From positions 32,714 through 96,713 of IMG/VR virus record IMGVR_UViG_2529292852_000001: a DNA stretch of 64,000 bases; one strand, 5' to 3'. Under the pieces are notes generated by a model. It did no database searches, was not told where the DNA came from, and saw only the letters and a list, made by a program, of their open reading frames with translations. Numbering within the stretch: position 1 is the first letter of the stretch; every line of letters starts with the position of its first letter. Below are positions 5,274 to 50,392 of this stretch, in pieces. A program made the position numbers and the translations under genes. This DNA comes from a virus. Its lineage: Duplodnaviria; Heunggongvirae; Uroviricota; Caudoviricetes.

Positions 5274-5280
5274 TCTAAGA

Positions 5281-6746: not shown

Positions 6747-6748
6747 AA

Positions 6749-27783: not shown

Positions 27784-27831
27784 GTATATTATTTTCAAAC
27801 AAAAACATTAGTGAAACACACGTCAAACTCT

Positions 27832-29369: not shown

Positions 29370-29370
29370 T

Positions 29371-29436
29371 ATAACGATGGCAGGAATCGAACCTGCATCT
29401 GTTACCTTGCCTTACCGTTAGGCTACATCGCTACTT
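29371..29436 (-). ncRNA. tRNA-like element with acceptor stem, D-arm (GCCTAACGGTAAGGC) and T-arm but no anticodon arm. Overlaps the tnpB stop codon
   Basis: Minus strand AGCGATGTAGCCTAACGGTAAGGCAAGGTAACAGATGCAGGTTCGATTCCTGCCATCGTT. Only 13 nt lie between the D- and T-arms. Confidence 0.5.
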
Positions 29437-30873
29437 GTTTCTTCTTTAGGTGTGGTTTTATTTTTAGCTCCACACTTAGTACATGTCCACTTTTCATCTT
29501 GCGTGATAACCGTACGTTCATGCCCACATTTCTTGCAAGTATCATTCATCTTATCTAGTAAATCCAAGCCTTCATCTAAGATGTTTTTAGCTGCGTTTAT
29601 GTCTTGATCATGGTGAGAATTACATACAGGACAAGTCCAATTACGATCCTTTAATTTAAGGTTGTGCTTAATGTAACCACAAGTATGGCAACGCTTTGAA
29701 GTTGGTGACCAACGATCAATAAACACAATCTTTTTATCAGCCCAGTCCATCATGTAAGTGAGCGTATCTCTAATTTCACGAAAGTTTGATCTAGTGATTG
29801 CTCTAGCACGGTATTTGTTCTTTTCCATGTCTGAAACAGCTAGGTCTTCCATAACGATTACATCATATTCATTAGCAAGCTTTGAACATGTCTTTTTAAT
29901 ATAGTCTTTTTTCAAGTTCTTAATACGTAAGTGTAACTTAGCAATTTTCTTTTTGTTCTTTTGGTAATTGCTACGTTCAGCTAAAGTAGGAACATGCTTT
30001 GGAATTAAGGCTTTTTTATTATCTTCTTCAATAATTGCGACCTCTTTTTTCCATTGTTCATACTTACGACTACGCTTTATGTTTTCTTTTTCAATCTTTT
30101 GTTCTAATTTTCTGATTTTGTCATATGGTAATTGATACCTTGTGCCATCTTGTAAAACAATATGACTATTACCTGTTACGTTTAAGTCAATGCCAGCTGC
30201 TAAACCAGTTCTAGGACGATCTACAGTATGTTCAGCTTGTTCAAACACAATTGACGCATACCAAGTATCGCTAGATTCATGCTTAATTGTTACTTTATAC
30301 AAACGACCATCACTAGGATAATGGTTAGCAATTTCAATTAAGCCTAACTTAAACTTCTTTAATTTACCTACTCTAAGGTAATTTCCATCTTCGCTTATAC
30401 CACAAACTTGAGCGCCTGAAGTATAGCTTCCGTTATTGTCAACGTCCATCGTTGTTTTAAATCTAGGAATACCAAAGTGTCTAGGGTTTTTCAAATGGTT
30501 GCTCATCGCTGTTTTTAAAGTACGTAAAGTGTAACTATACATACTAGTGTCAGCATCTTTCAAAGTCCAACCACTTTTAAATACAGTTTCATCAGCATCG
30601 TAAATTGCCTTAGTTGATAATTCACGTACACCTTTGAACAAATCACGTTGTTCTTCCCATGACATTCTTTCAATACGTTTGTAAACTTCTTTGCTTTGTT
30701 TATTTTTAGGTAAAGCTTGAACTTCATCTAATTCACTAACTGGCTTATAAACTTCAGCTAGTAACGCATTCCACATTTTGATGTTAGCAAACATATTAAA
30801 CGTTAAGTATGCTTGTTGTTCTTTAGTAGGATAAATTCTAATTCTACGACTTTCTAAAACTTTTTCTTCCATT
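29418..30873 (-). CDS. tnpB: TnpB paralog (~485 aa) with an extra C-terminal zinc ribbon. The annotated 551-aa ORF is probably over-extended at the 5' end
   Basis: RuvC-I GIDLNVTGN, RuvC-II VIVMEDL, ZnF CHTCG...CPVCN, RuvC-III QDINAAKNI, then a second ribbon CKKCG...CTKCG. The first 67 codons of the listed ORF are homologous to the noncoding scaffold. The internal Met (MEEKVLESRR) has RBS AAGGAG 9 nt upstream. Confidence 0.75.
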
Positions 30874-30879
30874 TTTTCC

Positions 30880-31073
30880 AACTCCTTTTTTGAGTTAACA
30901 TGTAATTTACGCATAGTCTTTTGGCTGACTACACCTAACGCTAACCCTTCCACAATGGACGTCTTTATTTGTGCCATCAGCACTTTTTGGGAACTCTTCA
31001 ACAAAGAAATGCAATTAGCAACACTTTGTTTGCGAAGATGTTTACCAAACTGTGAAGAGCAAGCACCCTCCAA
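30880..31073 (-). ncRNA. Decayed scaffold copy (5' leader of tnpB) without an adjoining repeat
   Basis: Minus strand GGAGGGTGCTTGCTCTTCACAGTTTGGTAAACATCTT...GAAGAGTTCCCAAAAAGTGCTGATGGCACAAATAAAG aligns with the scaffold 5' and 3' blocks. Confidence 0.45.
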
Positions 31074-31074
31074 T

Positions 31075-31138
31075 AACGATGGTAGGAATCGAACCTACGT
31101 CGCCTCGCTTTGCTCTACCATTGAGCTACATCGTTGTT
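31075..31138 (-). ncRNA. tRNA-like element (7-bp acceptor, canonical D-arm TAGCTCAATGGTAGAGCA, T-arm, no anticodon arm), immediately upstream of the tnpB leader
   Basis: Minus strand AACGATGTAGCTCAATGGTAGAGCAAAGCGAGGCGACGTAGGTTCGATTCCTACCATCGTTA. Confidence 0.5.
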
Positions 31139-31165
31139 TTGACTTTAATTAAGCCCATGATTTCA

Positions 31166-31399
31166 TTCTTACACCTATGTCAATTCAACTAGGTTCAGAA
31201 CATTTGATTGCACTATCGAACTCATCACGTCGTCTTACACCTATGTCAATTCAACTAGGTTCAGAACTATCCTAAGAGTAATTGGAGTCCACTCGAAGTC
31301 TTACACCTATGTCAATTTAACTAGGTTCAGAACGGATCTCCCAAGCGAAGGAATCGAAGGCACGTCTTGCGCCTATGTCAATTTAACTAGGCTCAGAAC
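31166..31399 (-). CRISPR. CRISPR-like mini-array D: 4 repeats (variant GTCTTACACCTATGTCAATTCAACTAGGTTCAGAAC), 3 spacers of 30 nt
   Basis: Repeats at 31166 (5' end degenerate), 31232, 31298 and 31364. Confidence 0.6.
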
Positions 31400-31539
31400 C
31401 ATTGTTTTCTAACCTATATTTAATTGTGACATAAGCTTCTTGGGAACTCCCCATGCTTGCGATGCCTTACTGTTAGTTTAACCAACAACACCGTAGAGGC
31501 TAGAGATATTAGCCAAGCTGTCGAGAACAAGCGTCCTCC
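31400..31539 (-). ncRNA. Conserved scaffold D with anti-repeat
   Basis: Homologous to scaffolds A-C. Confidence 0.5.
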
Positions 31540-31592
31540 TATTAGCATTAGCGGAGTCGAACCACTATTAAAGTAACCGTACATGCCAACCT
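31540..31592 (-). ncRNA. tRNA-like mini-element
   Basis: TATTAGCATTAGCGGAGTCGAACCACTATTAAAGTAACCGTACATGCCAACC (plus strand). Confidence 0.4.
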
Positions 31593-31669
31593 ACAATAAA
31601 CATAAAGGAGATGCAGGCTAAATTCCTGCGATAGACACAATGTACGCAGGGGTTAAGAAGAAACCCCCT

Positions 31670-31720
31670 ATTAGCACTGGTAGAATCGAACCACCATTAA
31701 GCAACCATACGTGCCAACCT
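31670..31720 (-). ncRNA. tRNA-like mini-element preceded by a GGGG..CCCC hairpin
   Basis: TTAGCACTGGTAGAATCGAACCACCATTAAGCAACCATACGTGCCAACC. Confidence 0.4.
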
Positions 31721-31774
31721 TGAGTAAATCATTCAGTACAATCACACCGCCGCCACGAACCCTAGATGGCGGCA

Positions 31775-31945
31775 GTCTTACACCTATGTCAATTCAACTA
31801 GGTTCAGAACCCTAACCTATATTTAATTGTGACACAAGTTTCTTGGGAACTCTTCTTACTTACAATGTTGCTAACTAAGTAATCTAAGTTGCAACACTGT
31901 AGAGGCTAAAAATATTAACCAAGCTGTCGAGAACAAGCGTCCTCC
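31775..31945 (-). ncRNA. Solo repeat (31775-31810) fused to a scaffold copy (31811-31945)
   Basis: One perfect D-type repeat followed directly by CCTAACCTATATTTAATTGTGACACAAG...GCGTCCTCC. Confidence 0.5.
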
Positions 31946-31996
31946 TATTAGCACTAGTGGAATCGAACCACTACAAGATAACCGTATGTACTAGCC
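31946..31996 (-). ncRNA. tRNA-like mini-element
   Basis: TATTAGCACTAGTGGAATCGAACCACTACAAGATAACCGTATGTACTAGCC. Confidence 0.4.
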
Positions 31997-32067
31997 TCAT
32001 AAGTAACTTTATAGAAAAGGAGTTTGTTACATAACCACTCATACATGGGAGTATTATTACACTCCCT

Positions 32068-32123
32068 ATTAGCATAGCTAGAATCGAACTAACTTTTATT
32101 CCAAAATGCTTATATTTGCTAAG
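32068..32123 (-). ncRNA. tRNA-like mini-element (variant type, as at 40806-40860) preceded by a GGGAGT..ACTCCC hairpin
   Basis: ATTAGCATAGCTAGAATCGAACTAACTTTTATTCCAAAATGCTT. Confidence 0.35.
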
Positions 32124-32132
32124 TTATGATAA

Positions 32133-32432
32133 GTCTTACACCTATGTCAATTCAACTAGGCTCAGAACCTCGTCTAAGGCTTTTTAATTGTTCTTCTGGT
32201 CTTACACCTATGTCATTTAACCTAGGTTCAGAACTGAAAGGAGATGATTAAATTGAGCAATATAGTCTTACACCTATGTCAATTCAACTAGGTTCAGAAC
32301 CTACTTTGAAATCACTACATCATAACCACGGTCTTACACCTATGTCAATTCAACTAGGTTCAGAACCCTTGACTAATAGTGATAAACGTATCAGATGTCT
32401 TACACCTATGTCAATTCAACTAGGTTCAGAAC
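32133..32432 (-). CRISPR. CRISPR-like mini-array E: 5 repeats (36 nt), 4 spacers (30 nt)
   Basis: Repeats at 32133, 32199, 32265, 32331 and 32397. Confidence 0.65.
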
Positions 32433-32575
32433 CGTTATTTTCTAACCTATATTTAATTGTGACATAAGTTTCTTGGGAACTCTTCTTACTTGCAATGGCG
32501 CTAACTAAGTAATTTTAATTGCGACACTGTAGAGGCTAAAGATATTAACCAAGCTGTCGAGAACAAGCGTCCTCC
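32433..32575 (-). ncRNA. Conserved scaffold E with anti-repeat (middle section is of the variant family)
   Basis: CGTTATTTTCTAACCTATATTTAATTGTGACATAAG...CTGTAGAGGCTAAAGATATTAACCAAGCTGTCGAGAACAAGCGTCCTCC. Confidence 0.5.
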
Positions 32576-32640
32576 AATAGCGATGGCAGGAGTCGAACCC
32601 ACTTGATTGCTCTACCGTTGAGCTACACCGCTACACCAAA
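32576..32640 (-). ncRNA. tRNA-like element with a canonical D-arm (TAGCTCAACGGTAGAGCA) and T-arm, no anticodon arm
   Basis: Minus strand GTAGCGGTGTAGCTCAACGGTAGAGCAATCAAGTGGGTTCGACTCCTGCCATCGCTATT. Confidence 0.45.
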
Positions 32641-32981
32641 ATGTACATAACGAATAAAGATAAAGTTAAGATTATAAGGGTTGTGCTAATGCTTACAGGA
32701 ACGATAGAGGCTTACATGTAGTTTACTGATGTCCCTGTAGGCTTAACCCTTTGCCTTACGTTTATTATGATACACTATCTCGCACCCTAAGTCAAATGTT
32801 TTTGTATACTTTTTTAAAATAAAATTCAAAAAAGTTGAAAAATAAAAAAAGCCACAAGCCTAGGTAACCCTAAGTGTAGCTTTCTTTTACACAGCAAAAC
32901 AAACATTAAGGAGCCTTAACTGTTTTTCGCTAGTTTTATTCTAGCATAAACATTAGTGTTTTCCCAGCGGTTGTAGCTGAG

Positions 32982-33173
32982 TTAATAACGTTCTTTCAAT
33001 TGCTCGTTAGCAAACTCTATAATAGCTTGTATATCTTCTTTTGTAGCAACTCTTAGAAAACTCTTTGCCGTACTTCTTTTGCTTAGGTATCGCTTATGCT
33101 CTCGGTTTTGCTCGTTCCATTTTCTGTTATAAGCTACTTGCTTTTTTATTTTATCATTAGTTTCTTTTGCCAT
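32982..33173 (-). CDS. Hypothetical small basic protein
   Basis: 63-aa ORF flanked by ~30-bp direct repeats (32851-32885 and 33351-33385). Confidence 0.3.
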   Translation of the reverse strand: MAKETNDKIKKQVAYNRKWNEQNREHKRYLSKRSTAKSFLRVATKEDIQAIIEFANEQLKERY

Positions 33174-33425
33174 TTTGTAACGCTTCTTTCAATTGTTTTT
33201 CTTTACTTTTGAGTCTATGCCATGTATTATTGTATATGAAAAGAGAGCAAACAGTTGCGACCTGCTTGCCCTCAAGCGTGAATGTTTAAGACTATTGTGG
33301 TGTATAAGCTGGTTACGATTATTTAAAATCGTGATTAGCTTTTTTTATAAACTAGGTAACCCTAGATGCAGCTTTCTTTTATTGTATGTGATATAATGTA
33401 TTTGCAGCATTACATATGACTGACT

Positions 33426-33468
33426 TAAAAACTCCACCCAATCATGAGTGGAGTTCTTTTATTTTTTG
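33426..33468. terminator. Bidirectional terminator
   Basis: AACTCCACCCAATCATGAGTGGAGTT followed by a T-run. Confidence 0.5.
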
Positions 33469-33505
33469 GCAAAGACTAACGATAACGTAGTTTTTGCCGT
33501 TTTTC

Positions 33506-34162
33506 TTATCTTTGATACACCTTTCCATTAATCTTTATATGCCTATCGTCCACAAGCTTTACCTTATCGCCTTTATTAACCTTTTTCCAAATGTTTTCAG
33601 GCACGAAGATTACTTTGTCACCAACTTTGATCCAACGTCTAGGCTTACCTTGATTGTCAGTTGGAATGTTTGCTGGTGCAACGTTGTTTCTATTTTGGCT
33701 ATTAAGCAAGATCCAGTAAGGAATCCAATAGTAGTAACTACTGTAGATGCTGTTTGCAGAACGTCCTGGGTAGTTTCTTGCATAATAGTTAGACCATCTG
33801 CTGTAACTAGATCTTTGATTACTGTCAGTCAAACTCTTATACTCACTCATGCTGCCAATGCTTCTACGAACGTTACTACCAGCCTGCAATCCATTTTTCG
33901 ATCCAGTGCTTGTTATAGGCGATGTCCTAACTGGAGAAGTTGGCCCTTTATTAATGTTAGCCTTAGGTGATGTACGTGGAGTAGTCCGTGCGCTTATTCG
34001 TGGTGACGTTCTTCTAGGACTAACTCTCGGTGTTGATCTAACCGTTACGTGTGGGGTTGTAGCACGTGATGTACTTACTGCTTGACCGTTAGCTGGGAGC
34101 AAGCTCAAAGTTAAGCCACAAACAACGAGGCTCAATAAAAGTTTTCTATTCACCTTTGTCAC
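33506..34162 (-). CDS. Secreted protein with SPR/TSPR-rich repeats
   Basis: Signal peptide. TPRVSPRRTSPRISARTTPRTSPK repeats. Locally GC-rich. Confidence 0.45.
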   Translation of the reverse strand: MTKVNRKLLLSLVVCGLTLSLLPANGQAVSTSRATTPHVTVRSTPRVSPRRTSPRISARTTPRTSPKANINKGPTSPVRTSPITSTGSKNGLQAGSNVRRSIGSMSEYKSLTDSNQRSSYSRWSNYYARNYPGRSANSIYSSYYYWIPYWILLNSQNRNNVAPANIPTDNQGKPRRWIKVGDKVIFVPENIWKKVNKGDKVKLVDDRHIKINGKVYQR

Positions 34163-34581
34163 TCACTTTCCCACTAATGTTAGTATCTTGCAAATTGTAC
34201 ATCTGGCTATAAGGTGAACGATGAATGTACCAGCCATTATCAGTTTTAACAACATATGGTGTATCTAGGTCTGCCTGGATAACTTCAGCAAACTTGTCGC
34301 CAAAAGTTTCAGTAGAAACGTTCTTATAAGCTATTTTCCCATGCGAATAATAACCAATAGTATAAGTTATCGCTATCGTGGGTTGTACGGCTTTCAAAAA
34401 ATGCTAACTTATACACCTTACTATGAGTATTTTCTTTCTTGGCTTTCTGATAACTCAAGCGAGAACTAGCAATGGTATCAGGGTCACTGTTAGCAGAAAC
34501 TCCACTATCCAAACAACCAGTTAGCGTAACCCCAGCCATCATTGTAATCCCAGCAACTAACAACTTCTTGTATAAACTCAT
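34146..34581 (-). pseudogene. Lipoprotein gene apparently split by a frameshift (ORFs 34324-34656 and 34146-34397 overlap)
   Basis: Lipobox LTGC after MSLYKKLLVAGITMMAGV. The downstream ORF continues a plausible mature domain in another frame. Confidence 0.3.
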
Positions 34582-34649
34582 ATTCAGTCCTTCTTTTCTA
34601 CTTTTCTTCCTGCATTTTAGCAACTTTTGCTTCAGCTTCTTCGATGGAA

Positions 34650-35474
34650 TTAGCATTGACTATAATGTTCCCATGCACTTTTCCGTCTACCACGTCGATT
34701 TGGTACCAACCCATATTTCTTCACTCCTTCCAAGCCGTTTTCAAAGTATTTAAAGCGTTCGTAATAGCTTAAGTATCGGCTCTTTTTAACTTCTAAATTC
34801 CTAGGGTTAACTTTTAGTTTAGCTACCCAATCACCCTTACGTTGATAGTTGCTACAGATGAGTATGTTCTCTTGTGGATCGTCATCTTTAACGTAAGGCA
34901 TACCTACTTGTTCAATCGTGATGTCTTTTAAACCAAACTTAGTAGCGTAGAATCCATGTTCAATTCGGCCACGATAAGTGCCAACCATCGCTGTGAAATG
35001 AATTGTATCGCCAACTGAGATATAAATAGTTTGATCATCGCTATTTTCAAAGTTAGTAATATCAGAAAACCTAATCCATAAATGAGTGGCTAGTTTCCTG
35101 AACATATCAACTCTAGTTGCACCTTGAGTGTACTTGTATTCACTGAAATAAGATTGTTCAACTAACAGTTGACTATTCCATGGATCCTCAGGGTCGATTT
35201 TAATGTCAGATACGATTGCAAATACGTCTAATTTAGTGTTGACGTAATCTTGTAAAACAAAGCGACTAGAGCTTTTTTCAGGCTTTGTTTGTAGTAAGAG
35301 TGCAGCTGTAGCTATTCTAGCTTGATTAGCGTTTTGTTTAACTTCCTTGTAACCACTTAGGATAAAGCCAAACGGTGAATGATGTTTATCAGCCGTTGGA
35401 ATTTTAGGTACAGTTTGTTTTTGCTCTTGTTTTTTGTTTTTCTTTAAGCGTTTAGCATACTTCTTTTTATCCAT
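34650..35474 (-). CDS. Hypothetical protein
   Basis: 274-aa ORF with a basic N-terminus. Confidence 0.35.
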   Translation of the reverse strand: MDKKKYAKRLKKNKKQEQKQTVPKIPTADKHHSPFGFILSGYKEVKQNANQARIATAALLLQTKPEKSSSRFVLQDYVNTKLDVFAIVSDIKIDPEDPWNSQLLVEQSYFSEYKYTQGATRVDMFRKLATHLWIRFSDITNFENSDDQTIYISVGDTIHFTAMVGTYRGRIEHGFYATKFGLKDITIEQVGMPYVKDDDPQENILICSNYQRKGDWVAKLKVNPRNLEVKKSRYLSYYERFKYFENGLEGVKKYGLVPNRRGRRKSAWEHYSQC

Positions 35475-35569
35475 AATTCATCAACCCCTTTTGATTAATT
35501 TTTATTACAAACGGACGTAAAACCTATGATTTTAGTCGTGGAATATAAGCTCTAGTTTGCCTAAACAAA

Positions 35570-36946
35570 CTAAATATTTTCCATTTTCTTTTCCAACATT
35601 CCATTTACATGATATAAGCTAATTACATTTTTAACTGTGCCATATTTACCGTTTTGGAAAACAATGCCCTTTCCTCTACTATTAACTCCTTTGACTCTTT
35701 CAATCCTGTTAGTTCTGGTATTTAACACAACATCATGTGGTCTTAATTGATAATGACCTCTTCTAATCGAAACACGACCCTTTTTAACTTTTTCTTTTCT
35801 AAATTGTCTTAAATTGTCATAATTAAGCTCTTGGGATCGTCTAGTTCTCCCTGAACTTAACTCTTTACCAGCTTTTTGTTTACCATCGCGACAATCAATA
35901 TACTTAGCGTCATAAAACAACTGTAATATACGATTATTATTCCTTAACTTTTGTCTCGAATAAACATTGTTTGTTCTAAGGGTTGTATCAGTTCCACCAG
36001 CAATCACAAAAGCGTCATTTAAGTGAGATTTTTCAATCTTATACTTTTGTCTTAGGTTAGCGGTTAGATAACCTTGAGTTGTCGTATATTCATCAAAATA
36101 ATTGCTTAATCTTGTTGCTAAAATGCTCATAAAATAAGCTCCACGATAATCAATCGTCTTTTGCCGATTTTGTCTTAATTTAGCTAAGACACCATTATTG
36201 TGATTAGCTTGATTATGGTTAATATCTGACAATAAAACTAAGTTATCTGGCTGATTAGAACCACCATCTTTTCGCTGCACTAAGTGATGAACTCTTAATT
36301 GACTAGCTGGATATTGTTTACCATCTAAAGCATCACGATAGTTATCTCTAGCTAGTAGATAATCCTTAATCGTCTTAAAACCATACATCTTACCTTTTTG
36401 ATACTGCCAGGCTTTAATATTTGGATTAGCTAGTTTTTGATTATCAAATGGTGTAACTTCAACGACTAAATTAGTAATGGGTAAAAACGTATATAAACGT
36501 TTGATTTCTTTAATTGTAAAATCTAATCTGTGTTGAATACTAGGAGCTAACCAGCCGTCTTTACGTCTACGATTATCAAATCTAGCTTGACGGTATCTTA
36601 AATGTCCTCTTCGAGTACGTCTTAATTCTCTTCGACTAGTAATTCGATCTTTTTCTGACTTTCTTAAGCTTTCTGACGCATAATATTCACGTTGGTTTCC
36701 AACAACAGATAATCCTAAGTGAAAACCAGCATCTACTCCTAAAGTTAAATTTTGTGTATTTGTAGTAACAGGTCTGACAAATTGGATAGTCTTACGACTA
36801 TTTCCGAACCATCTTGCTTGACCTGTTTTTAACCAACGACGCACCATGCCTAATCTTGAAGTTGGCATGAGTGGTGTGCCGTTGGAGTCTACTACATAGA
36901 TATAATTAAATTTTTTGATTTCTGACATCATGCCAACTCCTTTCAA
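35570..36946 (-). CDS. iscB: IscB RNA-guided nuclease, copy 2
   Basis: Same motifs as copy 1 (PLMP, RuvC, HNH), with a handful of substitutions. Confidence 0.8.
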   Translation of the reverse strand: MKGVGMMSEIKKFNYIYVVDSNGTPLMPTSRLGMVRRWLKTGQARWFGNSRKTIQFVRPVTTNTQNLTLGVDAGFHLGLSVVGNQREYYASESLRKSEKDRITSRRELRRTRRGHLRYRQARFDNRRRKDGWLAPSIQHRLDFTIKEIKRLYTFLPITNLVVEVTPFDNQKLANPNIKAWQYQKGKMYGFKTIKDYLLARDNYRDALDGKQYPASQLRVHHLVQRKDGGSNQPDNLVLLSDINHNQANHNNGVLAKLRQNRQKTIDYRGAYFMSILATRLSNYFDEYTTTQGYLTANLRQKYKIEKSHLNDAFVIAGGTDTTLRTNNVYSRQKLRNNNRILQLFYDAKYIDCRDGKQKAGKELSSGRTRRSQELNYDNLRQFRKEKVKKGRVSIRRGHYQLRPHDVVLNTRTNRIERVKGVNSRGKGIVFQNGKYGTVKNVISLYHVNGMLEKKMENI

Positions 36947-37194
36947 TAATTGTAATTCGCACCTAACATAAAGTTGGTACGTGTGTACCCTTCGCCAATG
37001 TTATAGGTTGGTTTAATGTTAATTACACTGAGCCTGAACTCAACTCTGTTTAATAATTAACCGTAGAGTCTAAGACTAGGGTGGCATCTTAGAGTACCTA
37101 TCTATTCAACCCTAACGTAGTTACTTAAAACTTAGGCTAATCAACCAGCTTGCATTTCTACAAGCCACCTACTTTAGTCGGTGGTTCTGTTGAC
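36947..37194 (-). ncRNA. Putative IscB omega-RNA scaffold, copy 2
   Basis: Conserved with 17705-17949. Confidence 0.5.
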
Positions 37195-37389
37195 CTACTT
37201 TGCCAAATAGTCTTTTACGCTGTCACTAGCAGCTTGGTCTAACTTACGTCTGTGATATAGTCGATTACCCATGCACCAAGGACAAGTTCCATGGTTACGG
37301 CAAGTTTGGTCTACAGCTTTTGAGCCGTAATAAGGTTTGCGATGTTCTTTTCCATGTTTGATTGCTTTTTCTAAGCCCATATAAATCAC
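37195..37389 (-). CDS. Small Cys-rich (zinc-ribbon-like) protein
   Basis: CRNHGTCPWC motif. 64 aa. Confidence 0.35.
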   Translation of the reverse strand: MIYMGLEKAIKHGKEHRKPYYGSKAVDQTCRNHGTCPWCMGNRLYHRRKLDQAASDSVKDYLAK

Positions 37390-37409
37390 CTCTTTTTGAC
37401 AACACTAAC

Positions 37410-38477
37410 CTAAGCCACAGCGTATTGAGGTTTAGTTCCAAAGCTAGTTAAGCTATTGACTTCAATTAGTTCATCTTGAGCTAATTCAAAGTTGTCAGAC
37501 AAGTATGTCTTAATGCTATTAGCGATGTTGTTACGAATGTAAGAATACATAAAGCTTTCAGTGTTTCTAACCTTTTCTTGACCTTTGTAAATAATTTCAG
37601 TCATTCTAATTAATGCAGACTCTAAGCCTTTGATTAACAAGCTGTTAGTTTCAAATCTTGTAGCTTCTTGACTTGCAGGATTGTATAACCAATTAGAACT
37701 AGACAATAACTTATTAGTTACTTGGCTTTTAGCTTTAAAGATAGTATTAACAATAAACTTAGCTTGTTTGTAATCACCTTGAGCTAAGATTTTAACTCTA
37801 CCCCATACAGCAGGAGTTAAAACGTTAGATATTCTGTTTTTCAAAGCTAACATAGCTGTTCTATTAACGTTGTAGTCTACCTTTGAGTCGATAGAAGAAG
37901 GAGATGGTTGATTGCTAACTTTTTGTAAGTTAGGATCTGATTCATATGTTTCATTTGTATTATTATATATATCTCTCTTAGAGTCTTTCTCACTTATAGG
38001 ATTATTTTTCATGCCTGTAGCTGAATTATCTTCACTCACGTACTGGTCAATTATTCTAACAAGGTCTTCATTAACGTTATTACTATCGTTGATACTATTA
38101 CTTTTATCAGTACTTTGAACCTTTTTTTGAACACTCGCTTGTGGTTCATGCACGTAGATTTTATAATGCTTTAAACCAAGTCTTTTTACGCTAATTAAAC
38201 CATGGTTAACTAACTCTTTACGTAACTTAGATACAGTTCTGCTAGTTGTACGTACTTTTTCAGCTGCTTCTTCATTAGTGAAGATAATGTATGGATTACC
38301 TTTTTCATCAACAAAATCTTTATTACCTTTTTTAGCACTATTGATAGAGCAAGTTAAACGTCTTGCATAAAATGAATACAGTAAGATTGATAAACCACTT
38401 AAGTCCTTGTATTTTTCATCTTCAATTAATGTATCTGATACTTTTGTGAATGTTCCTTCAACGTTGGTTTTAGTCAT
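37410..38477 (-). CDS. RepA_N-family plasmid replication initiator
   Basis: N-terminus FTKVSDTLIEDEKYKDLSGLSILLYSFYARRL...NPYIIFTNEEAAEKVRTTSRTVSKLRKELVNHGLISVKRLG matches the RepA_N winged-helix pattern of Firmicute theta plasmids. Confidence 0.6.
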   Translation of the reverse strand: MTKTNVEGTFTKVSDTLIEDEKYKDLSGLSILLYSFYARRLTCSINSAKKGNKDFVDEKGNPYIIFTNEEAAEKVRTTSRTVSKLRKELVNHGLISVKRLGLKHYKIYVHEPQASVQKKVQSTDKSNSINDSNNVNEDLVRIIDQYVSEDNSATGMKNNPISEKDSKRDIYNNTNETYESDPNLQKVSNQPSPSSIDSKVDYNVNRTAMLALKNRISNVLTPAVWGRVKILAQGDYKQAKFIVNTIFKAKSQVTNKLLSSSNWLYNPASQEATRFETNSLLIKGLESALIRMTEIIYKGQEKVRNTESFMYSYIRNNIANSIKTYLSDNFELAQDELIEVNSLTSFGTKPQYAVA

Positions 38478-38492
38478 AATAAAATTTCCTTT

Positions 38493-38765
38493 CTAGTATT
38501 CGTCCTCGTCTTCGTCATCATCTTCATCAAATAAGTCATGAATGCCTAAGTTATCGAGCAGTAAGCTTACGATTAAGATTTTTACATCTTCGTGTAATGG
38601 TTCAAACAAAGATGTGATAACCTTAATAGCTGTTTCAGAGCCTAGTTGACCCTCCATCATAGTTCTTTCATCTTTTCTAAGTACCATCAAAGTTTCGTTA
38701 TAACCTGCGTCTTGCAGTAATTTAGTAGTTTCATCAGCAATTTTTTTAATTTCGCTTGAACTCAT
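38493..38765 (-). CDS. Small acidic protein (poly-D/E tail)
   Basis: 90 aa, C-terminus DEDDDEDEDEY. Confidence 0.35.
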   Translation of the reverse strand: MSSSEIKKIADETTKLLQDAGYNETLMVLRKDERTMMEGQLGSETAIKVITSLFEPLHEDVKILIVSLLLDNLGIHDLFDEDDDEDEDEY

Positions 38766-38781
38766 CTATAAGCCTTCTTTC

Positions 38782-39537
38782 TTAGTCTATATTTTCTTGG
38801 TATGGATCGTATTTCCAAATATAAGTCCAACGATCGTCTATCCATTCTCGTTTACTTAAAATCGTGCCTTGGTTATCAAGCATGGTGTACTTCCAGTGCA
38901 AACCGTCGCTTTCTTGCCAAACAAACGCTAACCAAATAATGTCTTGCTTGTTTGACATACGTAAGATGTAAGTTTCAAACGTGTTCATTGGTGTACGGTT
39001 TAGCCAACTGTCAAAATCAATAAGTAAACCCTTGTGTCTTTCAATGCCTGTAATCTGCGATGAAATTAAGTGTGTTCTATCAACGTGATTAGGACTTAGG
39101 CTACCTGTAATCTTAGAGTTAGGATTTTCTGAATTTAAGTCAGCAACAATGTAAGACTCATGCTTAACTCTTTGACTTTTAGTAGCACTTTTTTCAATTG
39201 CAGGAAAATGTCCCCTCGTATTTTTGCCATTTCTTTGTCGCCAAGCTTCTCTAAACTTTTCTTCACTGTCGATACCGTTAGCAATCAAGTCTAAATAATC
39301 TCGGTTATAAGCAAAGCCAGTATTTTGTTTTACGTACACACAAGCAACGTGATGTGTTGGTGTGTGTTGCCACAAAACCGTGTTAGGATCTACTTGATTA
39401 ATGTATTTTAAAGCCTTAGATAAGCTAAAAATATTGGCACTGGTTACTTCATAAACATCAGTGCCGCCATTGTTAACATTATCTAAAATCGTATTAAACT
39501 TTTTTATTGCATAATCTCGAGTAATGATTTTAACCAC
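38782..39537 (-). CDS. Hypothetical protein, possible DNA/RNA non-specific endonuclease (weak)
   Basis: NHVDRTHLISS loosely resembles the DRGH motif of beta-beta-alpha-Me nucleases. Sits directly downstream (minus strand) of a scaffold plus solo repeat. Confidence 0.3.
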   Translation of the reverse strand: MVKIITRDYAIKKFNTILDNVNNGGTDVYEVTSANIFSLSKALKYINQVDPNTVLWQHTPTHHVACVYVKQNTGFAYNRDYLDLIANGIDSEEKFREAWRQRNGKNTRGHFPAIEKSATKSQRVKHESYIVADLNSENPNSKITGSLSPNHVDRTHLISSQITGIERHKGLLIDFDSWLNRTPMNTFETYILRMSNKQDIIWLAFVWQESDGLHWKYTMLDNQGTILSKREWIDDRWTYIWKYDPYQENID

Positions 39538-39557
39538 CTCCTTGATATAATCATTTA

Positions 39558-39719
39558 GTCTTAGCTTATGCTTTCAACTAGGATCAGAACCTATATCCAA
39601 TTGTGACATAAGCTTCCTGGGAACTCTTTGTACTTGCAATGCCGCTAACTAAGTAATCTAAATTGTAGCACTGTAGAGGTTGAAGATATTAACCAAGCTG
39701 AAAAGAACAAGCGTCCTTC
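39558..39719 (-). ncRNA. Degenerate solo repeat (39558-39590) + scaffold copy (39591-39719), directly upstream of gene 38782-39537
   Basis: ...TTCAACTAGGATCAGAAC then CTATATCCAATTGTGACATAAGCTTCCTGGGAACTC...GAAAAGAACAAGCGTCCTTC. Confidence 0.45.
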
Positions 39720-39786
39720 AAATAGCGATGGCAGGAGTCGAACCTGTATCTCATGCCTTGCTCTACCGTTGAGCTACATCGCTACG
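39720..39786 (-). ncRNA. tRNA-like element with a canonical D-arm and T-arm, no anticodon arm
   Basis: Minus strand GCGATGTAGCTCAACGGTAGAGCAAGGCATGAGATACAGGTTCGACTCCTGCCATCGCT. Confidence 0.45.
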
Positions 39787-39869
39787 CTTACACTTTTTAT
39801 TTTAGGGAGGAAAAAGTGTAGCCCCATACACATTCCGATTAGTTGGCTCGCCCTTGTTTTTCAACAAGG

Positions 39870-40860
39870 ACAATTGGCACTGGTAGGATCGAACTACCAT
39901 TAAGCAACCGTGCGTGCCAACCGTGAATTAATGTTATGATTTATTTAGGGCTTATTTTTGCCCTATTGGCAAACAAGGAGTCGAACCTTGACGTCACAAC
40001 CGTGTTACCAACTGTATTTCCAAAGGTGAACTAACGAAATACAAGGAACTGTCTTGCAAACACCCACTCTTGTCAGATGTACAGTCTTAGTTTGTTTAAC
40101 AGTTCGTTTTGACTTTTTTCATGGCCCTGTACAGGAGGCAAAGCCCAGCACCAAAAACAACATAAGGTAGGTAGTTAGGATTAACCTTAACCTATTGGCA
40201 CTAGCAGAGTCGAACCGCTATGAAAGCAACCGTGCGTGCCAACTTATTGAGAGAAAAAACTTTAAAGGAAAGATATTTTTGTTGTCCCACTAGGGTTATT
40301 TTCGCCTTCGTTTTACCAAAGGCAATTAGCACCAGTGGAGTCGAACCACTGTAAAAGCAACCGTACGTGCCAACCAAATCATAAATATTAAATCAAGGAG
40401 TTATGTTAGTTAGAGTAATTTTTTTATTACTCTAAAGAGAAAAAGTTTTGAGTTTGTAGCTTAATGCTACAATTGGCACTAACAGAATCGAACTGTTACA
40501 AGACAACCATGCGTGCCAGCCGATAAGTAACTTTTAAAAAAGGAGTAATATACAACCATCTTAGGGTTTATTCAAGCCCTATTGGTGTTAGCGGAATCGA
40601 ACCGATATACAGCAACCATGCACACCAACCAATATTTTAAGAGTTTATATAATAAGGCATTTAAGCCTAAATAAGAGGAAATAGTTTTAGGGTTGTTACA
40701 CCCTATTGGTAGCCAAGGAATCGAACCTTGATACAACCACTCTACCAACCTATAAGTAATAGTTTAAGTGCAAGTGTGAATGCCACTGTGAAGCTTGTCA
40801 GTGGCAATAAGCATAGCTAGAGTCGAACTAGCTTTTATTCCAAAATGCTTGTTAGATAAA
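39870..40860 (-). repeat. Tandem array of 8 tRNA-like mini-elements (~48 nt each: 5-bp acceptor-like stem, 3-bp mini D-hairpin with a YGGT loop, T-arm with a GTTCGAYTC loop), spaced 60-120 nt apart, each followed on the minus strand by an AGGGTT..AACCCT hairpin
   Basis: Units at ~39873, 39962, 40193, 40323, 40468, 40573, 40697 and 40806. Stems covary while loops are conserved. Confidence 0.55.
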
Positions 40861-40870
40861 CCTGTGATAT

Positions 40871-40964
40871 GTCTTATCTTATGTTTGTTTTAGCTAAGTT
40901 CAGAACATAACTCTCTACACAGTATTCTGTCTTATACTTACGTCATTTTAACTAGGTTCAAAAT
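40871..40964 (-). CRISPR. Two degenerate repeats with a 22-nt spacer (array remnant)
   Basis: GTCTTATCTTATGTTTGTTTTAGCTAAGTTCAGAAC and GTCTTATACTTACGTCATTTTAACTAGGTTCAAAAT. Confidence 0.35.
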
Positions 40965-41221
40965 GTCAAGAAATATATATATCCTATGTCAACTGCCCCA
41001 GTCTAAAGACATGGAGCTTGTAACTCACGACCTTACGGTCAGTGGTAATAACGCAACTTCGTTGCTCCCACACTATACATGGCTACATCATTGGGTGGTT
41101 GACAACACCCACTTAACTAACACGTTTACGCATTAGTTGTTAATTCAAATTTAGGTTGTTCTTGTCCACTAATATACTGAGTTCCAAGTAATTGGATATT
41201 CATTGATATGGTGGTCTTTTA
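40965..41221. other. Unassigned ~260-nt noncoding segment, relatively GC-rich. Possible structured RNA
   Basis: No ORF. Lies between a scaffold and the repeat remnant. Weak similarity to part of 28198-28862. Confidence 0.2.
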
Positions 41222-41377
41222 CCTATAATAATTCAATTAGGATCAGAACCTATATTTAATTGTGACACAAGCTTCTTGGGAACTTTCCATGCTTGCGATG
41301 TTTTACCGTTAGATTAACCAACGTTACACCGTAGAGGCTAGAAATATTTACCAAGCTGTCAAGAACAAGCGTCCTCC
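41222..41377 (-). ncRNA. Degenerate solo repeat + scaffold copy
   Basis: ...AATTAGGATCAGAAC then CTATATTTAATTGTGACACAAGCTTCTTGGGAACT...GTCAAGAACAAGCGTCCTCC. Confidence 0.45.
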
Positions 41378-41900
41378 AATTAGCACTAACGGAATTGAAC
41401 CGTTATTACAGCAACCATGCGTGCCAACTCAATAATTACTATAGAAAGGTTTTACTATGGCAAAACACTAGCATTACCATCTTTTAGGGTTTATCCAACC
41501 CTATTGGCACTAGCGGAGTCGAACCGCTATGAAAGTAACCGTACGTGCCAGCCGTAAGTCGAATCGAATATATAAAGGAGTAAAGAGATGCGAGTATTCG
41601 CAATCTTTTAGGGTCTGTTTCAACCCTATTGGCAGCCAAGGACTTGAACCTTGATGCAACCATTCTGCCAACCAATTTAATTAATTCAATAAAATAAAGG
41701 AGAATAGGGTCTATGGCAACCCTATTGGCACTGGTAGAATCGAACCACCATAAAAGCAACCATGCGTGCCACACCCAGTTAGTAAGTAACATATAATAAA
41801 AGGAGCGATGCAAACAATGTTTGCAGCCTAGAGCTAAGCTTAACCTAGCTCTAATTAGCAGGTAGGGAATCGAACCCTAGCTTAAGCAACCATGCCTGCT
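41378..41900 (-). repeat. Tandem array of 5 more tRNA-like mini-elements with preceding AGGGTT..AACCCT hairpins
   Basis: Units at ~41385, 41498, 41617, 41716 and 41846 (e.g. GGCACTAGCGGAGTCGAACCGCTATGAAAGTAACCGTACGTGCCAGCC). Confidence 0.55.
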
Positions 41901-41909
41901 AGAAGATGA

Positions 41910-42971
41910 CTAAAATGGTAAGTCATCGTTACTGATAAAATCATCTTTTGGTTTATTGTCAGTATAGTTATCTAAAAAGCTTGAATAATCTTCTTTTTTT
42001 GTTTCATTTTCTGTAGCTGTAGAATTAGTATCAACTACTGGTTGATCGTTTAGAACTGATACAATCTTGCTCCAGTCTTCTGGTTGACCTAAGAATTTAG
42101 TTAATGTTTTGTTATCAACTACTCCTAAATTGCCTAATCTTTTAATTGTATTTGCTTTTACCACATTATGAGCAAGTAGTTTAGCTAACATTTGATCGTT
42201 TTCTTCAATTTCATTTTTATAATCAGCAATCAAATCAAGAATTTTCTTAGCTTTAACATTCATTCTCTCTTTTTTTTCTTCTGATAATTCTTTCAATGAA
42301 AATTTAGGAATAAAAGATCCACCGTTGGAATTAGGTGCAAAGTATTGTTCATCACTGTTTGAAGTAAATTCTTCAACCTTTAATAACTTACCTTTAATAA
42401 GTTCAGGTGCATTTCTAAAATCAAGATGTAATTGATTTAATAATCCAAAATACTTTTTGGGTGTAAGTTCTAAATAAGCTAAAACAATATTATTATTGAC
42501 TTTAGAAAAACTGGCTAAGTCTTCGTCTGTATTAATTAGTTTGTTATCTTTTTTAGTTAACAAACCAAAAATTCTACGTCGTTCTTTAACCTCTTCATTA
42601 GGGAAATTTTCCTTAAAGTTGTTACTACCACCTGGGTAAATACCTAAACTAGAACTTGTGCGTCCTTGAGCAGTATCTTTGTAGCGGTATAAATCATATA
42701 CACCTAGCAAAGATGGATTTGAAGAAATTCCTTTATCGCTTTTAGCAACTTTAGTCATAAATAATGGAATAAATTCATACGATTTAGCTTGAAGCATTTG
42801 TCCACGTTCTTTGTTATTTTCAGGAAATTGGATAGTTAACATACCTGATTGCCCATTATGGCGAAGATTTAAAATATCTACACCATTAGGTCTTAAAGGC
42901 ACTCCTGTTCGTGTTCCTTCATCTACATTTACCATTAAAGAGTCTAGTGTGTTCATAATAAAGTCCTCCAA
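41910..42971 (-). CDS. Hypothetical protein. Its stop directly abuts the tRNA-like array
   Basis: 353-aa ORF with RBS GGAGG. No recognised motif. Confidence 0.45.
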   Translation of the reverse strand: MEDFIMNTLDSLMVNVDEGTRTGVPLRPNGVDILNLRHNGQSGMLTIQFPENNKERGQMLQAKSYEFIPLFMTKVAKSDKGISSNPSLLGVYDLYRYKDTAQGRTSSSLGIYPGGSNNFKENFPNEEVKERRRIFGLLTKKDNKLINTDEDLASFSKVNNNIVLAYLELTPKKYFGLLNQLHLDFRNAPELIKGKLLKVEEFTSNSDEQYFAPNSNGGSFIPKFSLKELSEEKKERMNVKAKKILDLIADYKNEIEENDQMLAKLLAHNVVKANTIKRLGNLGVVDNKTLTKFLGQPEDWSKIVSVLNDQPVVDTNSTATENETKKEDYSSFLDNYTDNKPKDDFISNDDLPF

Positions 42972-48449: not shown

Positions 48450-49056
48450 ATGAAAGCAAATGAAGTAATGAAATTATTACAAATTAGTCGTTCCACTTTA
48501 CTAAGATGGCGAAAAGATGGCATTTTAAAAGCTACTAAATTGCCTTCTGGGCAATATGATTGGGACGCTAATTCTGTTTTTAAAATATTAAATAAAGGTG
48601 AAATTCGTGGTGTTTATTTATATGCTAGAGTAGTCTACACCTAAACAAAAACAAGACCTTGAAAACCAAATTGAAAACCTGCAAAGTTTTGCGATGAAAA
48701 ATGGTTATCAAGTTAAAGGTCTATACAAAGATATAGCTAGTGGAATTTCTTTTGAAAGAAGAAAGGAGTTTTTTGAATTATTAGACCTTGTAATTGGTGG
48801 TAAAGTATCAAAGGTTATTATCACCTACAAGGATAGATTAAGTCGTGTTGGTTTCGATCTGTTTAAATACTTATTTTCCAAGTATCATACCGAGATAATT
48901 GTGATGTCAGAATTAACCGATAAAAAGGCAGACCAACAAGAAATATTTGAAGAAATCATTAGCTTGTTGCACGCATTTTCAATGAGAATGTACTCGAGTA
49001 GAAGAAAGAAAATTAAAGAAGCTTTGGAAGATAAGGAGGTGAACAAGGATGGTTAA
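48450..49056 (+). pseudogene. tnpA: IS607-type TnpA serine recombinase, disrupted by a +1 frameshift at the catalytic-Ser codon (~48633)
   Basis: ORF1 ends ...LYARVVYT*, and the next frame reads STPKQKQDLENQ...MKNGYQV. Deleting G48633 restores YARVSTPKQ. Confidence 0.55.
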
Positions 49057-50392
49057 AAAGCAAAAATCAAAGAAGAAAGTCATAAAAACTTTTAAAGAAG
49101 TAAGAGCAGAGAAAACGGAAGTTCAATATGAGTATTTGGTGGAAAAGCATATTATTAAATCTAATGATGCACGTTATGCTATTTTAGATAAATACGCTCA
49201 TCTATCCAATAATGTCTACAACCAAGCTCTATATCGTTTTAGACAGGCTTTCTTTAAGGGTAAGTGGCTGAGTTACGAAAAACTAGACAAATCATTTAAA
49301 CAATCTTTTAATCAAAAGGACTGTATGCTGTATCGTTCTATGAAAAGTGTACATTTAGCTCAACAAATTTTAAAGTTAGTCAATCAAAATATGACTTCTT
49401 GGAATAAAGCTCGTAAAGCATATTTAAAGGCACCGCAAAAGTTCACTGGCAAGCCTAAAATACCCAAATATAAACCCAAAGGCGGTAAAAATATTGTTAT
49501 CGTAGATAACCAAACTGCTAAATTAAGAGCTAATGGAATTGTAGAAATACCAGTGATGGATAGCTTGAAAATTAAGTTACAACACAAAGAAACTAATAAA
49601 ATTCAACAAGTTAGAGTCATTCCTAAAAATAATACTTTTGTAATTGAAATAGTTTATAAAACTAACAAGGTTATTGACTACAAAGAAGATAATGGACGCT
49701 ATTTAACGATTGACCCAGGACTTGATAATGCCTTTACGTTGGCATCTAATGTTAAAGGATTTAAACCTGTCATTATTAATGGACGTCCTTTAAAGTCAGT
49801 CAATCAATACTATAACAAGCAAAAAGCTAGATTAACTAGAATTTATGACTTGTCAAAACAAAATCGTAATACTAAACGTTTAAATAAACTTGATTTTTAT
49901 CGTAATCAAAAAATGTTAAAATTCGCTCATGAAGCAAGCAAACGCATTGTTGAGATAGCGTTAAGCCATGAGTTAAACACGATTGTTATTGGTAAAAATA
50001 AAGGACAAAAACGTTCTAGTAATATGGGAAAACGAATAAACCAAAACTTTATTGGAATTCCACATCAAAAAATGATTGAGATGATTGAATATAAAGCTAA
50101 TTTAGCAGGGATAGTCGTAATTCAAGCTAACGAAGCTTATACAAGTCAAACTTCATTTTTAGATAATGAAATACCAATTAACCAAAATGGTGATAAAGCT
50201 CGTAAACGTAAAGGGTTAAGTCCTGTCAAAAGACGCGTTAAACGTGGTTTATTTAAATCAAATAAAGGTATCTTAATTAACGCTGATGTTAATGGAGCGT
50301 TACAGATATTAAGAAAAGTAGTACCAAATGCTTTTGCTGACGGTATAGATGGAATCGGATTAGTTCCAGTTAAGCTAAACTTAAATTTCTAA
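49049..50392 (+). CDS. tnpB: TnpB (IS607/IS1341-type, no zinc finger)
   Basis: RuvC-I TIDPGLDN, RuvC-II IVIGKNKG, EAYTSQTSFLD, RuvC-III NADVNGALQI. Confidence 0.75.
   Translation: MVKKQKSKKKVIKTFKEVRAEKTEVQYEYLVEKHIIKSNDARYAILDKYAHLSNNVYNQALYRFRQAFFKGKWLSYEKLDKSFKQSFNQKDCMLYRSMKSVHLAQQILKLVNQNMTSWNKARKAYLKAPQKFTGKPKIPKYKPKGGKNIVIVDNQTAKLRANGIVEIPVMDSLKIKLQHKETNKIQQVRVIPKNNTFVIEIVYKTNKVIDYKEDNGRYLTIDPGLDNAFTLASNVKGFKPVIINGRPLKSVNQYYNKQKARLTRIYDLSKQNRNTKRLNKLDFYRNQKMLKFAHEASKRIVEIALSHELNTIVIGKNKGQKRSSNMGKRINQNFIGIPHQKMIEMIEYKANLAGIVVIQANEAYTSQTSFLDNEIPINQNGDKARKRKGLSPVKRRVKRGLFKSNKGILINADVNGALQILRKVVPNAFADGIDGIGLVPVKLNLNF

Follow-up and report, generated by a model that had tools for sequence, protein, structure and literature searches.

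tRNA-like units without an anticodon arm in a TnpB-type guide-RNA locus of a plasmid: putative RNase P/RNase Z punctuation signals

In mitochondria, tRNAs lie between co-transcribed RNAs, and cuts by RNase P and RNase Z at their edges make the mature ends, a mode of punctuation that Ojala et al. are said to have described in 1981; the t-elements of plant mitochondria, reportedly the subject of Forner et al. in 2007, are non-decoding tRNA mimics used solely as such processing signals. The mascRNA and menRNA of the MALAT1 and MEN-beta transcripts are tRNA-like with a reduced anticodon arm: RNase P forms the end of the long non-coding RNA, RNase Z releases the small RNA, which is CCA-tailed, and the end of the neighbouring RNA is protected by structure. 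In engineered polycistronic tRNA-gRNA (PTG) arrays for Cas9 and Cas12, reportedly introduced by Xie et al. in 2015, tRNAs alternate with guides and host RNase P and RNase Z free many guides from one transcript. Here we describe 23 tRNA-like units without an anticodon arm that lie among scaffolds, repeat-spacer arrays and tnpB genes in a 64,000-nucleotide (nt) window of a Ligilactobacillus salivarius plasmid, positions 32,714 to 96,713 of IMG/VR record IMGVR_UViG_2529292852_000001, and suggest that they may act as natural punctuation signals of this kind, a design so far known chiefly in mitochondria and engineered tRNA-guide-RNA arrays. All coordinates are positions in that window.

The units differ from each of these systems. 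They lie on a bacterial plasmid and in phages instead of mitochondria, their cargo would be guide-RNA scaffolds, CRISPR-like arrays, tnpB mRNAs and possibly the ROOL RNA, and they are much smaller, divide their acceptor/T helix 6/6 and are each followed by a hairpin. MALAT1 mascRNA, by contrast, is eukaryotic and single-copy, with the upstream 3′ end protected by a triple helix; our units are not members of the mascRNA-menRNA family because its model (RF01684) gave at best 18.5 bits (E = 2, unit 41855-41901 only), below the threshold of 42.5 bits. The synthetic PTG arrays rely on full tRNA genes. The tRNA-like domains of tmRNA and YrlA are bacterial mimics of acceptor, T arm and D loop that also lack an anticodon arm; they are, however, single domains of larger RNAs with functions of their own, and Rfam searches gave no significant tmRNA match (7 bits) and no Y RNA match. 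Integron attC sites adjoin an integron-type integrase and can fold from either DNA strand; here no recombinase lies in or beside the locus and the frequent G.U pairs are strand-specific. Apart from tolerant tRNA-model matches on four of them, the units belong to no Rfam family.

We scanned the window for a 5-bp stem enclosing a TTCRANN loop and followed by an acceptor strand complementary to upstream sequence. This T-arm plus acceptor scan gave the 23 units, each 42-62 nt long and on the minus strand, which together span 27378-41901; a stricter scan gave 20 matches in the window and 2.0 in shuffled sequence. Thirteen units fall inside a run at 39874-41901 that had been flagged in a preliminary description of this DNA, and the D-arm unit 39723-39783 comes next. 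That description had counted more than 20 anticodon-arm-less elements, which is borne out; its length range of 48-62 nt compares with 42-62 nt here.

The common plan joins an acceptor stem to a T arm whose loop is UUCRANY; the third part, which contains GG, is a D-arm or a 3-bp mini-hairpin. The anticodon arm is missing from all 23. Three classes can be told apart. The four D-arm units (29372-29432, 31074-31135, 32578-32632 and 39723-39783) have about 7 nt in place of the 17-nt anticodon arm and align end to end with the Rfam tRNA model RF00005 at 38-52 bits (gathering threshold 29; the model tolerates the deletion), while the remaining 19 units go unreported by RF00005 even at E <= 10. The 17 mini units are laid out as U-GGCAC / GCA-YGGU-UGC / 5-nt linker / 6-bp T stem / UUCGAYU / acceptor 3′ strand / A, with only 5-6 nt from the D-like hairpin to the T stem; they include three shorter variants and one with a degenerate 5′ end. 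In the two class C units (32069-32111 and 40808-40850) an unstructured UUUGGAAUAAA replaces the mini-hairpin. No unit forms the four-arm cloverleaf of a canonical tRNA, with its 5-bp anticodon stem and 7-nt loop. ARAGORN found no tRNA gene in the window and called none of the 23, and an Rfam search at E <= 10 of 39.5-42 kb returned the D-arm unit and otherwise chance-level snoRNA, miRNA, mascRNA and tmRNA matches. An origin as fragments of one tRNA left by integrations was ruled out, since the units retain both strands of the acceptor, these strands covary, and the structures fall into three classes.

Stems that differ between copies had been said to remain complementary, and the alignments confirm this. 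Among 25 mini units from the window and a sister plasmid (L001), 98.1-98.8% of cells are paired and 10-11 of 15 pairs have changed on both sides; control registers slid by 1-3 columns give 21-53%. For 36 distinct sequences from four replicons the figures are 98.7% and 11 of 15, against about 20-55% paired in shifted registers. Compensatory changes are present in all three helices. Position 7 of the mini units pairs with 16 (GC, AU or GU) and the two nucleotides that flank the classical T stem pair with each other (UA, CG or UG), which gives these units a 6-bp acceptor and a 6-bp T stem. The 6+6 split is shared by class C, and the D-arm units have the canonical 7+5; stems of 5 bp, as proposed earlier, are not what the mini units have. 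The acceptor/T stack is continuous in most units over 12 bp, or 1-2 more through leader-trailer pairs, and a strict count allowing no mismatch falls below 12 bp in five (40627, 40010, 39783, 32111 and 27420).

The nucleotides that build the tRNA elbow are the T-loop UUC and the D-loop GG. In the units U-U-C and A of the T loop are invariant, and GG, which class C and D-arm units have as well, is conserved at 90% or more in the mini-hairpin loop, so the elbow set U54-U55-C56-R57-A58 with G18-G19 is in place. About 33 G.U cells fit a minus-strand RNA only; on the other strand they would be A.C mismatches. Orthologous units of the two plasmids (alignment with L001) have near-identical flanks and T stems that are swapped wholesale yet complementary (for example GGUGG/CUACC vs AACGG/CCGUU), a pattern that indicates gene conversion among paralogous units.

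The unit ends are as uniform as the core. CCA is encoded by none of the 23, the discriminator is A in 22, U follows at +1 in all, and position -1 is a pyrimidine in 22. A stable stem-loop starts 1-4 nt past every discriminator, with a mean of -8.8 kcal/mol compared with -3.5 for 34-mers taken at random from this region (p = 9e-12, Mann-Whitney test). In the run these had been described as AGGGTT..AACCCT hairpins after every unit; the hairpins are there, and the AGGG..CCCT type seems to make up only about half of them. The sequence that follows is A-rich instead of U-rich, so they are not terminators. Promoter-like sites at 26-43.5 kb are no more frequent than in shuffled sequence, with no convincing promoter before individual units; a good site (32795-32767) lies upstream of the first unit in the 32.6-kb block. 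Given this promoter count and hairpins without U tracts, separate promoter-terminator genes are unlikely.

The units belong to a co-oriented block with two TnpB-family open reading frames (ORFs) of 484 and 417 amino acids (aa), both matched by TnpB models. The block holds eight copies of a scaffold of about 130 nt, a diverged ninth copy that is the tnpB-485 leader, and arrays of a 36-nt repeat with spacers of exactly 30 nt; the scaffold pairs through its 3′ end with the 5′ end of the repeat. A TnpB-like RuvC effector, a tracr-like scaffold and a repeat-spacer array are thus all present, and the locus is, judged by this component set, a TnpB-derived, TranC-like multi-array guide system. Its features, in minus-strand order, are as follows.

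41855-41901 (-): mini unit 1, 7-bp acceptor/5-bp T stem, 57.7 bits; 8 nt past the stop of ORF 41910-42971
41725-41771 (-): mini unit 2 (6/6), 69.3 bits, then AGGGTTGCCATAGACCCT hairpin
41629-41670 (-): mini unit 3, short 42-nt variant
41504-41550 (-): mini unit 4
41380-41426 (-): mini unit 5; scaffold copy starts 3 nt past its last base
41247-41377 (-): guide-RNA scaffold copy
after that scaffold (-): degenerate repeat 41214-41249, IS605-type tnpB 3′ fragment ~41213-40975, repeats 40929-40964 and 40871-40906
40808-40850 (-): class C unit (AAGCAU..AUGCUU, 6/6), 20 nt past the last repeat
40706-40747 (-): mini unit, short variant
40582-40627 (-): mini unit, acceptor GGUGU/ACACC, one T-stem mismatch
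40473-40518 (-): mini unit
40326-40372 (-): mini unit
40195-40241 (-): mini unit, then the longest inter-unit segment (184 nt)
39966-40010 (-): mini unit, acceptor GGUAA/UUGCC
39874-39919 (-): mini unit 13, last of the flagged run
39723-39783 (-): D-arm unit, 7 nt for the anticodon arm (RF00005, 45.2 bits), then scaffold
39558-39719 (-): scaffold copy and single repeat, directly upstream of ORF 38782-39537
32578-32632 (-): D-arm unit (RF00005, 38.1 bits), first element past the promoter-like site
32133-32575 (-): scaffold (32575-32444) and 5-repeat/4-spacer array, including spacer 32301-32330
32069-32111 (-): class C unit, 21 nt past the last repeat
31948-31993 (-): mini unit, then scaffold
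31775-31945 (-): scaffold and single repeat
31671-31716 (-): mini unit
31542-31588 (-): mini unit, then scaffold
31166-31539 (-): scaffold and 4-repeat array; 30-nt terminal spacer reaches the next unit
31074-31135 (-): D-arm unit before the tnpB-485 leader (RF00005, 52 bits)
29418-31071 (-): scaffold-like leader (31071-30873) and tnpB-485 coding sequence (30872-29418, 484 aa, TnpB/TranC-like)
29372-29432 (-): D-arm unit overlapping the last 15 nt of tnpB-485 (RF00005, 49.2 bits), then scaffold
28863-29369 (-): scaffold and 6-repeat array
28218-28828 (-): ROOL RNA, 231 bits
27832-28197 (-): scaffold directly after ROOL (no unit) and 4-repeat array
27733-27779 (-): mini unit, discriminator G, then scaffold
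27421-27730 (-): scaffold and 3-repeat array
27378-27420 (-): mini unit joined to the last repeat, 5′ strand of the acceptor degenerate, 47.8 bits; followed by a hairpin and the tnpB-417 ribosome-binding site
26075-27328 (-): tnpB-417 (TnpB family)

The units are in close register with this cargo. Eight of nine scaffold copies, that of the tnpB-485 leader included, start 2-3 nt after a unit discriminator, with a predicted scaffold 5′ end at UW-GGAGGACGC; the ninth adjoins ROOL, which is itself embedded in the co-oriented block (Rfam, 231 bits). Three different unit classes precede near-identical scaffolds, and 15 of the 23 units have no scaffold behind them. Six of eight scaffold-array modules end at a unit (terminal segments of 0, 20, 21, 30, 51 and 58 nt). 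All units are co-oriented with the flanking genes; tnpB-485 is bracketed by units and tnpB-417 preceded by one, as the preliminary description had placed them. Its statement that a unit follows every scaffold applies to six of the eight modules; eight of nine scaffold copies have a unit before them. The units thus form exact same-strand borders of functional RNAs, as a processing signal would.

We lean towards reading the units as RNA-level mimics of the 'top half' of tRNA, with acceptor stem, T arm and D/T-loop elbow, that serve as RNase P/RNase Z punctuation of long minus-strand transcripts. Such transcripts would be polycistronic and carry units among scaffolds, arrays and tnpB mRNAs. Host RNase P would cut the 5′ edge of each unit and RNase Z would cut just past the discriminator, as expected since no CCA is encoded. 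This would release tracr-like scaffolds with defined 5′ ends (2-3 nt past a unit), repeat-spacer arrays with the last guide cut back to the following unit, both tnpB mRNAs and, from the run at 39.9-41.9 kb, short hairpin-headed RNAs. The hairpin 1-4 nt past the unit would shield the new 5′-monophosphate end from 5′-exonuclease, a role consistent with what is generally known of RNA decay in Firmicutes, and the excised 42-62 nt mini-tRNAs would be by-products, possibly CCA-tailed. RNase P, RNase Z and the CCA-adding enzyme all gauge an acceptor/T stack of about 12 bp, and the anticodon arm is needed for decoding only. Most units keep a stack of that length, none encodes CCA and all have a U after the discriminator. 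The RNase Z of Bacillus subtilis is specific for precursors that lack CCA, which it cuts 3′ of the discriminator; RNase P in this species also cleaves such precursors in vivo, and does so before RNase Z when the leader is long; a native example has U74-A75 (PMC1874595). We infer cutting at both unit edges because the features kept (elbow, stack, CCA-less 3′ side with U74, -1 pyrimidine) match the requirements of these enzymes. The ends of one Logan contig, checked as possible marks of RNA ends, are assembly breaks inside repeats.

The locus has few relatives. The TnpB-485 clade is small (48-97% identity); all other matches are generic TnpBs at about 30%, and only such TnpBs, and no member of the clade, were found among 185,579 species-representative genomes. 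Members at 64-70% identity sit in SPbeta-like phage contigs with the same module, in the order tRNA-Arg, ROOL, scaffold, 36-nt-repeat array, TnpB-like gene, and a conserved cloverleaf 8 nt past the stop. That cloverleaf cannot decode because its anticodon loop has 6 nt, and its acceptor stem covaries among the phages. The SPbeta-like contigs also have a 'tRNA' without U33 and a 50-nt anticodon-less mini unit with hairpin before an mRNA. A relative with 50% TnpB identity has a 35-nt minihelix, and a 56-nt mini unit with hairpin directly before scaffold, array and TnpB. Phage relatives that are 50-70% diverged thus have pseudo-tRNAs or mini units in positions corresponding to those on the plasmid. 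ROOL recurs in the relatives (L002 8743-9308, L004 9072-9639, L012 6914-7522), and ROOL-guide-locus synteny is kept where TnpB is about 64-97% identical; the plasmid order is array, ROOL, scaffold. The phage scaffolds of the L002 type have no unit. In a 48% relative (L007, a prophage, 3784-8760) a 1066-aa SIR2-domain gene lies immediately upstream of a 440-aa TnpB-like gene, which is followed by a scaffold and a 28-nt-repeat array without any tRNA-like unit. The units probably derive from genes of phage tRNA islands, with the anticodon arm lost once decoding was dispensable, and, as far as sequence comparison reaches, the family has so far been met only in a single plasmid lineage and in phages related to it.

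A few kb from the phage module there is also a fused kinase (AAA_33)-phosphatase (Metallophos)-T4-type RNA ligase 1 (L002 17165-19474, L004 17343-19667, L011 6505-8640), with a domain set that resembles the T4 tRNA-repair enzymes.

The 13-unit run was described as tandem at 39.87-41.9 kb; the number of units holds, and the run is not purely tandem, being interrupted at 41377-40871 by a scaffold, an insertion sequence (IS) fragment and 2-3 repeats. The fragment (~40975-41213, minus strand) is an IS605-type tnpB 3′ part of ordinary L. salivarius type that breaks the scaffold-array; the sister plasmid has a complete TnpB IS (L001 15846-17102) between the orthologues of units 40627 and 40518. Small ORFs on both strands of the run have no common frame, start or spacing, and plus-strand AAGGAG sites have starts 2-12 nt away that open ORFs of 4-27 aa, so peptide genes were rejected. 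CTCCTT occurs 7 times, always 22-34 nt before the next unit, in 7 of 14 comparable inter-unit segments (those of 39784-41854 and 31589-32068, minus strand; 0.24 expected from shuffles), and AAGGAG never occurs on the minus strand of those segments. Pairing of leader CUCCUU with trailer AGGAGG was dropped as a general rule, being possible for two units only. The purpose of the run may be to produce mini-tRNAs that act as mimics or decoys, or else to produce anti-Shine-Dalgarno-like small RNAs.

Several observations weigh against punctuation. Beyond the interruption at 41377-40871 no recognisable cargo (scaffold, repeat or ORF) lies between units of the run, and punctuation alone does not explain why a 13-unit run exists. 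The tnpB-485 frame reaches 15 nt into the downstream unit (29418-29432, minus strand) and has its TAA stop inside the D-arm; RNase P cutting at 29432 would strip the stop codon and give a non-stop mRNA. Units with a 6/6 split and a 3-bp D-like hairpin are putative substrates of the two enzymes, and RNase Z might be impeded where a hairpin abuts the discriminator. Since paralogues exchange T stems by gene conversion, independent compensatory events are fewer than the cell counts suggest. Finally, the ROOL-adjacent and L007 scaffolds do without a unit, so the units are an accessory feature that goes with multi-part, polycistronic versions of the TnpB guide system. The processing role proposed in the preliminary description is partly supported: the anatomical predictions that sequence can address are all borne out, and what the run would release is left unexplained.

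The run gives most room to an account in which the mini-tRNAs are themselves the product, abundant trans-acting mimics, made in 13 or more copies, that processing only releases and that titrate or decoy a factor able to recognise tRNA elbow and acceptor end, for instance a tRNA-targeting toxin or defence nuclease, the CCA-adding enzyme or a modification enzyme, or that are substrates for some plasmid function. Its lack of obvious cargo, the differing unit copy number between plasmids, the retention of elbow and acceptor features while stem sequences are free to vary, and the hint of conflict over tRNAs in the repair-type fusion near the phage modules all fit. We nevertheless think it unlikely: a decoy has no need of exact abutment to scaffold 5′ ends and array ends, no synthetase acceptor identity is recognisable (U1-A72 and G3-C70, not G3.U70, by sequence and general knowledge), and there is no candidate partner gene, the neighbouring ORFs (353 aa, 251 aa and others) having no match in Pfam, PHROGs or NCBIfam. 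The 2-3 nt that separate eight of nine scaffold copies from a unit would also suit a structural 5′ domain that stays attached to the scaffold RNA, stabilising it or being bound in the TnpB-like ribonucleoprotein. Such a domain should not be followed by something other than a scaffold in 15 of 23 cases, be absent from the ROOL-adjacent, L002-type and L007 scaffolds, or come in three classes before near-identical scaffolds, and we give this account little credence.

DNA-level elements, such as recombination or att-like sites, attC-like cassette boundaries or origin repeats near the RepA_N/ParM region, would explain a structure kept while sequence varies, modules punctuated by units and T stems exchanged between paralogues, and the run does lie upstream of the repA operon, with the GC-skew switch 1-3 kb away. 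The G.U cells that become A.C mismatches on the other strand and the conservation of exactly the nucleotides of tRNA tertiary contacts (T-loop UUC, D-like-loop GG) point to RNA instead and disfavour the att-like or replication elements that had been offered as an alternative. Moreover, there is no recombinase within or adjoining the locus (the nearest integrase gene is at 4338-5273), and unit spacing is irregular at 46-184 nt; of the accounts considered we find this one the hardest to believe. About as weak as an attached scaffold domain is the idea that the units are decaying, functionless pseudogenes of a phage tRNA array that look conserved through recent duplication and gene conversion. 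It draws on the confinement of the family to one plasmid lineage and on units and spacers being equally similar (~90%) between the two plasmids. Decay would hardly remove the anticodon arm cleanly from all 23 units while most keep a continuous acceptor/T stack, nor produce compensatory changes in three helices, an adjacent hairpin, +1 U and absence of CCA in 23 of 23, and exact registration with scaffold starts.

Punctuation by RNase P and RNase Z can be extended to a broader proposal, which we put forward only tentatively and regard as rather doubtful as a whole: a natural multiplex guide-RNA factory run by the host enzymes, in which whittled phage tRNAs and 5′-protective hairpins release scaffolds, arrays, tnpB mRNAs and ROOL from single transcripts, while the run additionally yields trans-acting mini tRNA mimics and hairpin-capped CUCCUU (anti-Shine-Dalgarno-like) small RNAs, whose targets could be, among others, plasmid replication genes, translation in the host or defences directed at tRNA.

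Published work touches parts of this arrangement. ROOL and GOLLD RNAs lie within or near phage and prophage tRNA arrays, and co-transcription has been suggested (PMC5737381, PMC12286853, PMC12990946). The phage relatives here are exactly such ROOL/tRNA islands; the published reports concern ordinary tRNA genes, with no mention of anticodon-less units in those three papers and none of TnpB or CRISPR in the 2026 review. TranC systems are TnpB-to-Cas12 intermediates (Jin et al., Cell 2025; summaries in PMC13565253 and bioRxiv 10.64898/2026.03.27.714800). As described there, they resemble the present locus in a compact TnpB-like effector, a tracr-like scaffold derived from omega RNA, short arrays with repeats of about 36 nt and the lack of adaptation genes; in the preprint the word tRNA is absent and multiple unit-preceded scaffold copies are not described. 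Full-text literature searches, with the original TranC paper (Cell 2025) outside their coverage, found no anticodon-less tRNA-like units, no natural tRNA-punctuated guide arrays and no ROOL-TnpB link.

If the units are cut as predicted, they would be the first natural counterpart of engineered tRNA-gRNA arrays, with mobile elements multiplexing guide RNAs through tRNA maturation rather than a Cas nuclease or RNase III. They would also define a minimal bacterial RNase P/RNase Z substrate (6/6 helix and 3-bp D-like hairpin, ~46 nt) directly useful as a compact processing signal, and the long-unexplained tRNA-array neighbourhood of ROOL would gain a context in a TnpB-derived locus for warfare between plasmids and phages. 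The units would further document how tRNA genes can be reduced to the half that matters for processing.

Spacer 32301-32330 (minus strand, CGTGGTTATGATGTAGTGATTTCAAAGTAG) has 30/30 matches in small L. salivarius plasmids of 7-37 kb, at least seven in number, and 28/30 matches in seven more. With this match and spacers of exactly 30 nt the arrays look functional, and they are plausibly used against rival plasmids, in plasmid-against-plasmid targeting. Spacers had no significant match in phage genomes. Spacers 29163-29192 and 32235-32264 (minus strand) both contain CTCCTTTC, the antisense of a Shine-Dalgarno sequence, and their protospacers would cover regions of ribosome-binding site and start codon. 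The tnpB-485 5′ leader (30873-31071, minus strand) is a diverged scaffold copy (GGAGGGTGCTTGCTCTTCACAG...GAGTTCCCAAAAAG), which suggests possible autoregulation through binding of the effector to the leader of its own mRNA. Scaffold copies 41247-41377 and 39588-39719 (minus strand) lack the 14-nt GGTTAGAAAACAAC segment, which forms a long anti-repeat:repeat stem in the other six; thus two forms of the scaffold-repeat junction coexist on one replicon.

The window is a plasmid segment of about 35% GC with a GC-skew switch near 43 kb and genes for a RepA_N initiator, a ParM/Alp7A-type actin, an FtsK/SpoIIIE ATPase, ParA and a replicative helicase. Among public sequences it has a single close relative, the Ligilactobacillus salivarius ZSA5 plasmid NZ_CP123973.1 (91.5% identity across half of 39.6-42.0 kb); one IMG/VR contig and two ENA metagenome contigs are of the same family. 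The 13-unit run was sought elsewhere and found in one other plasmid (CP123973) and one IMG/VR contig of that family, with no phage record and only unrelated JGI metagenome matches. Two IscB genes (16328-17949 and 35570-37194, minus strand), each accompanied by a HEARO (omega RNA) element, and another TnpB of 447 aa (49049-50392, plus strand) make the replicon unusually rich in genes for RNA-guided nucleases.

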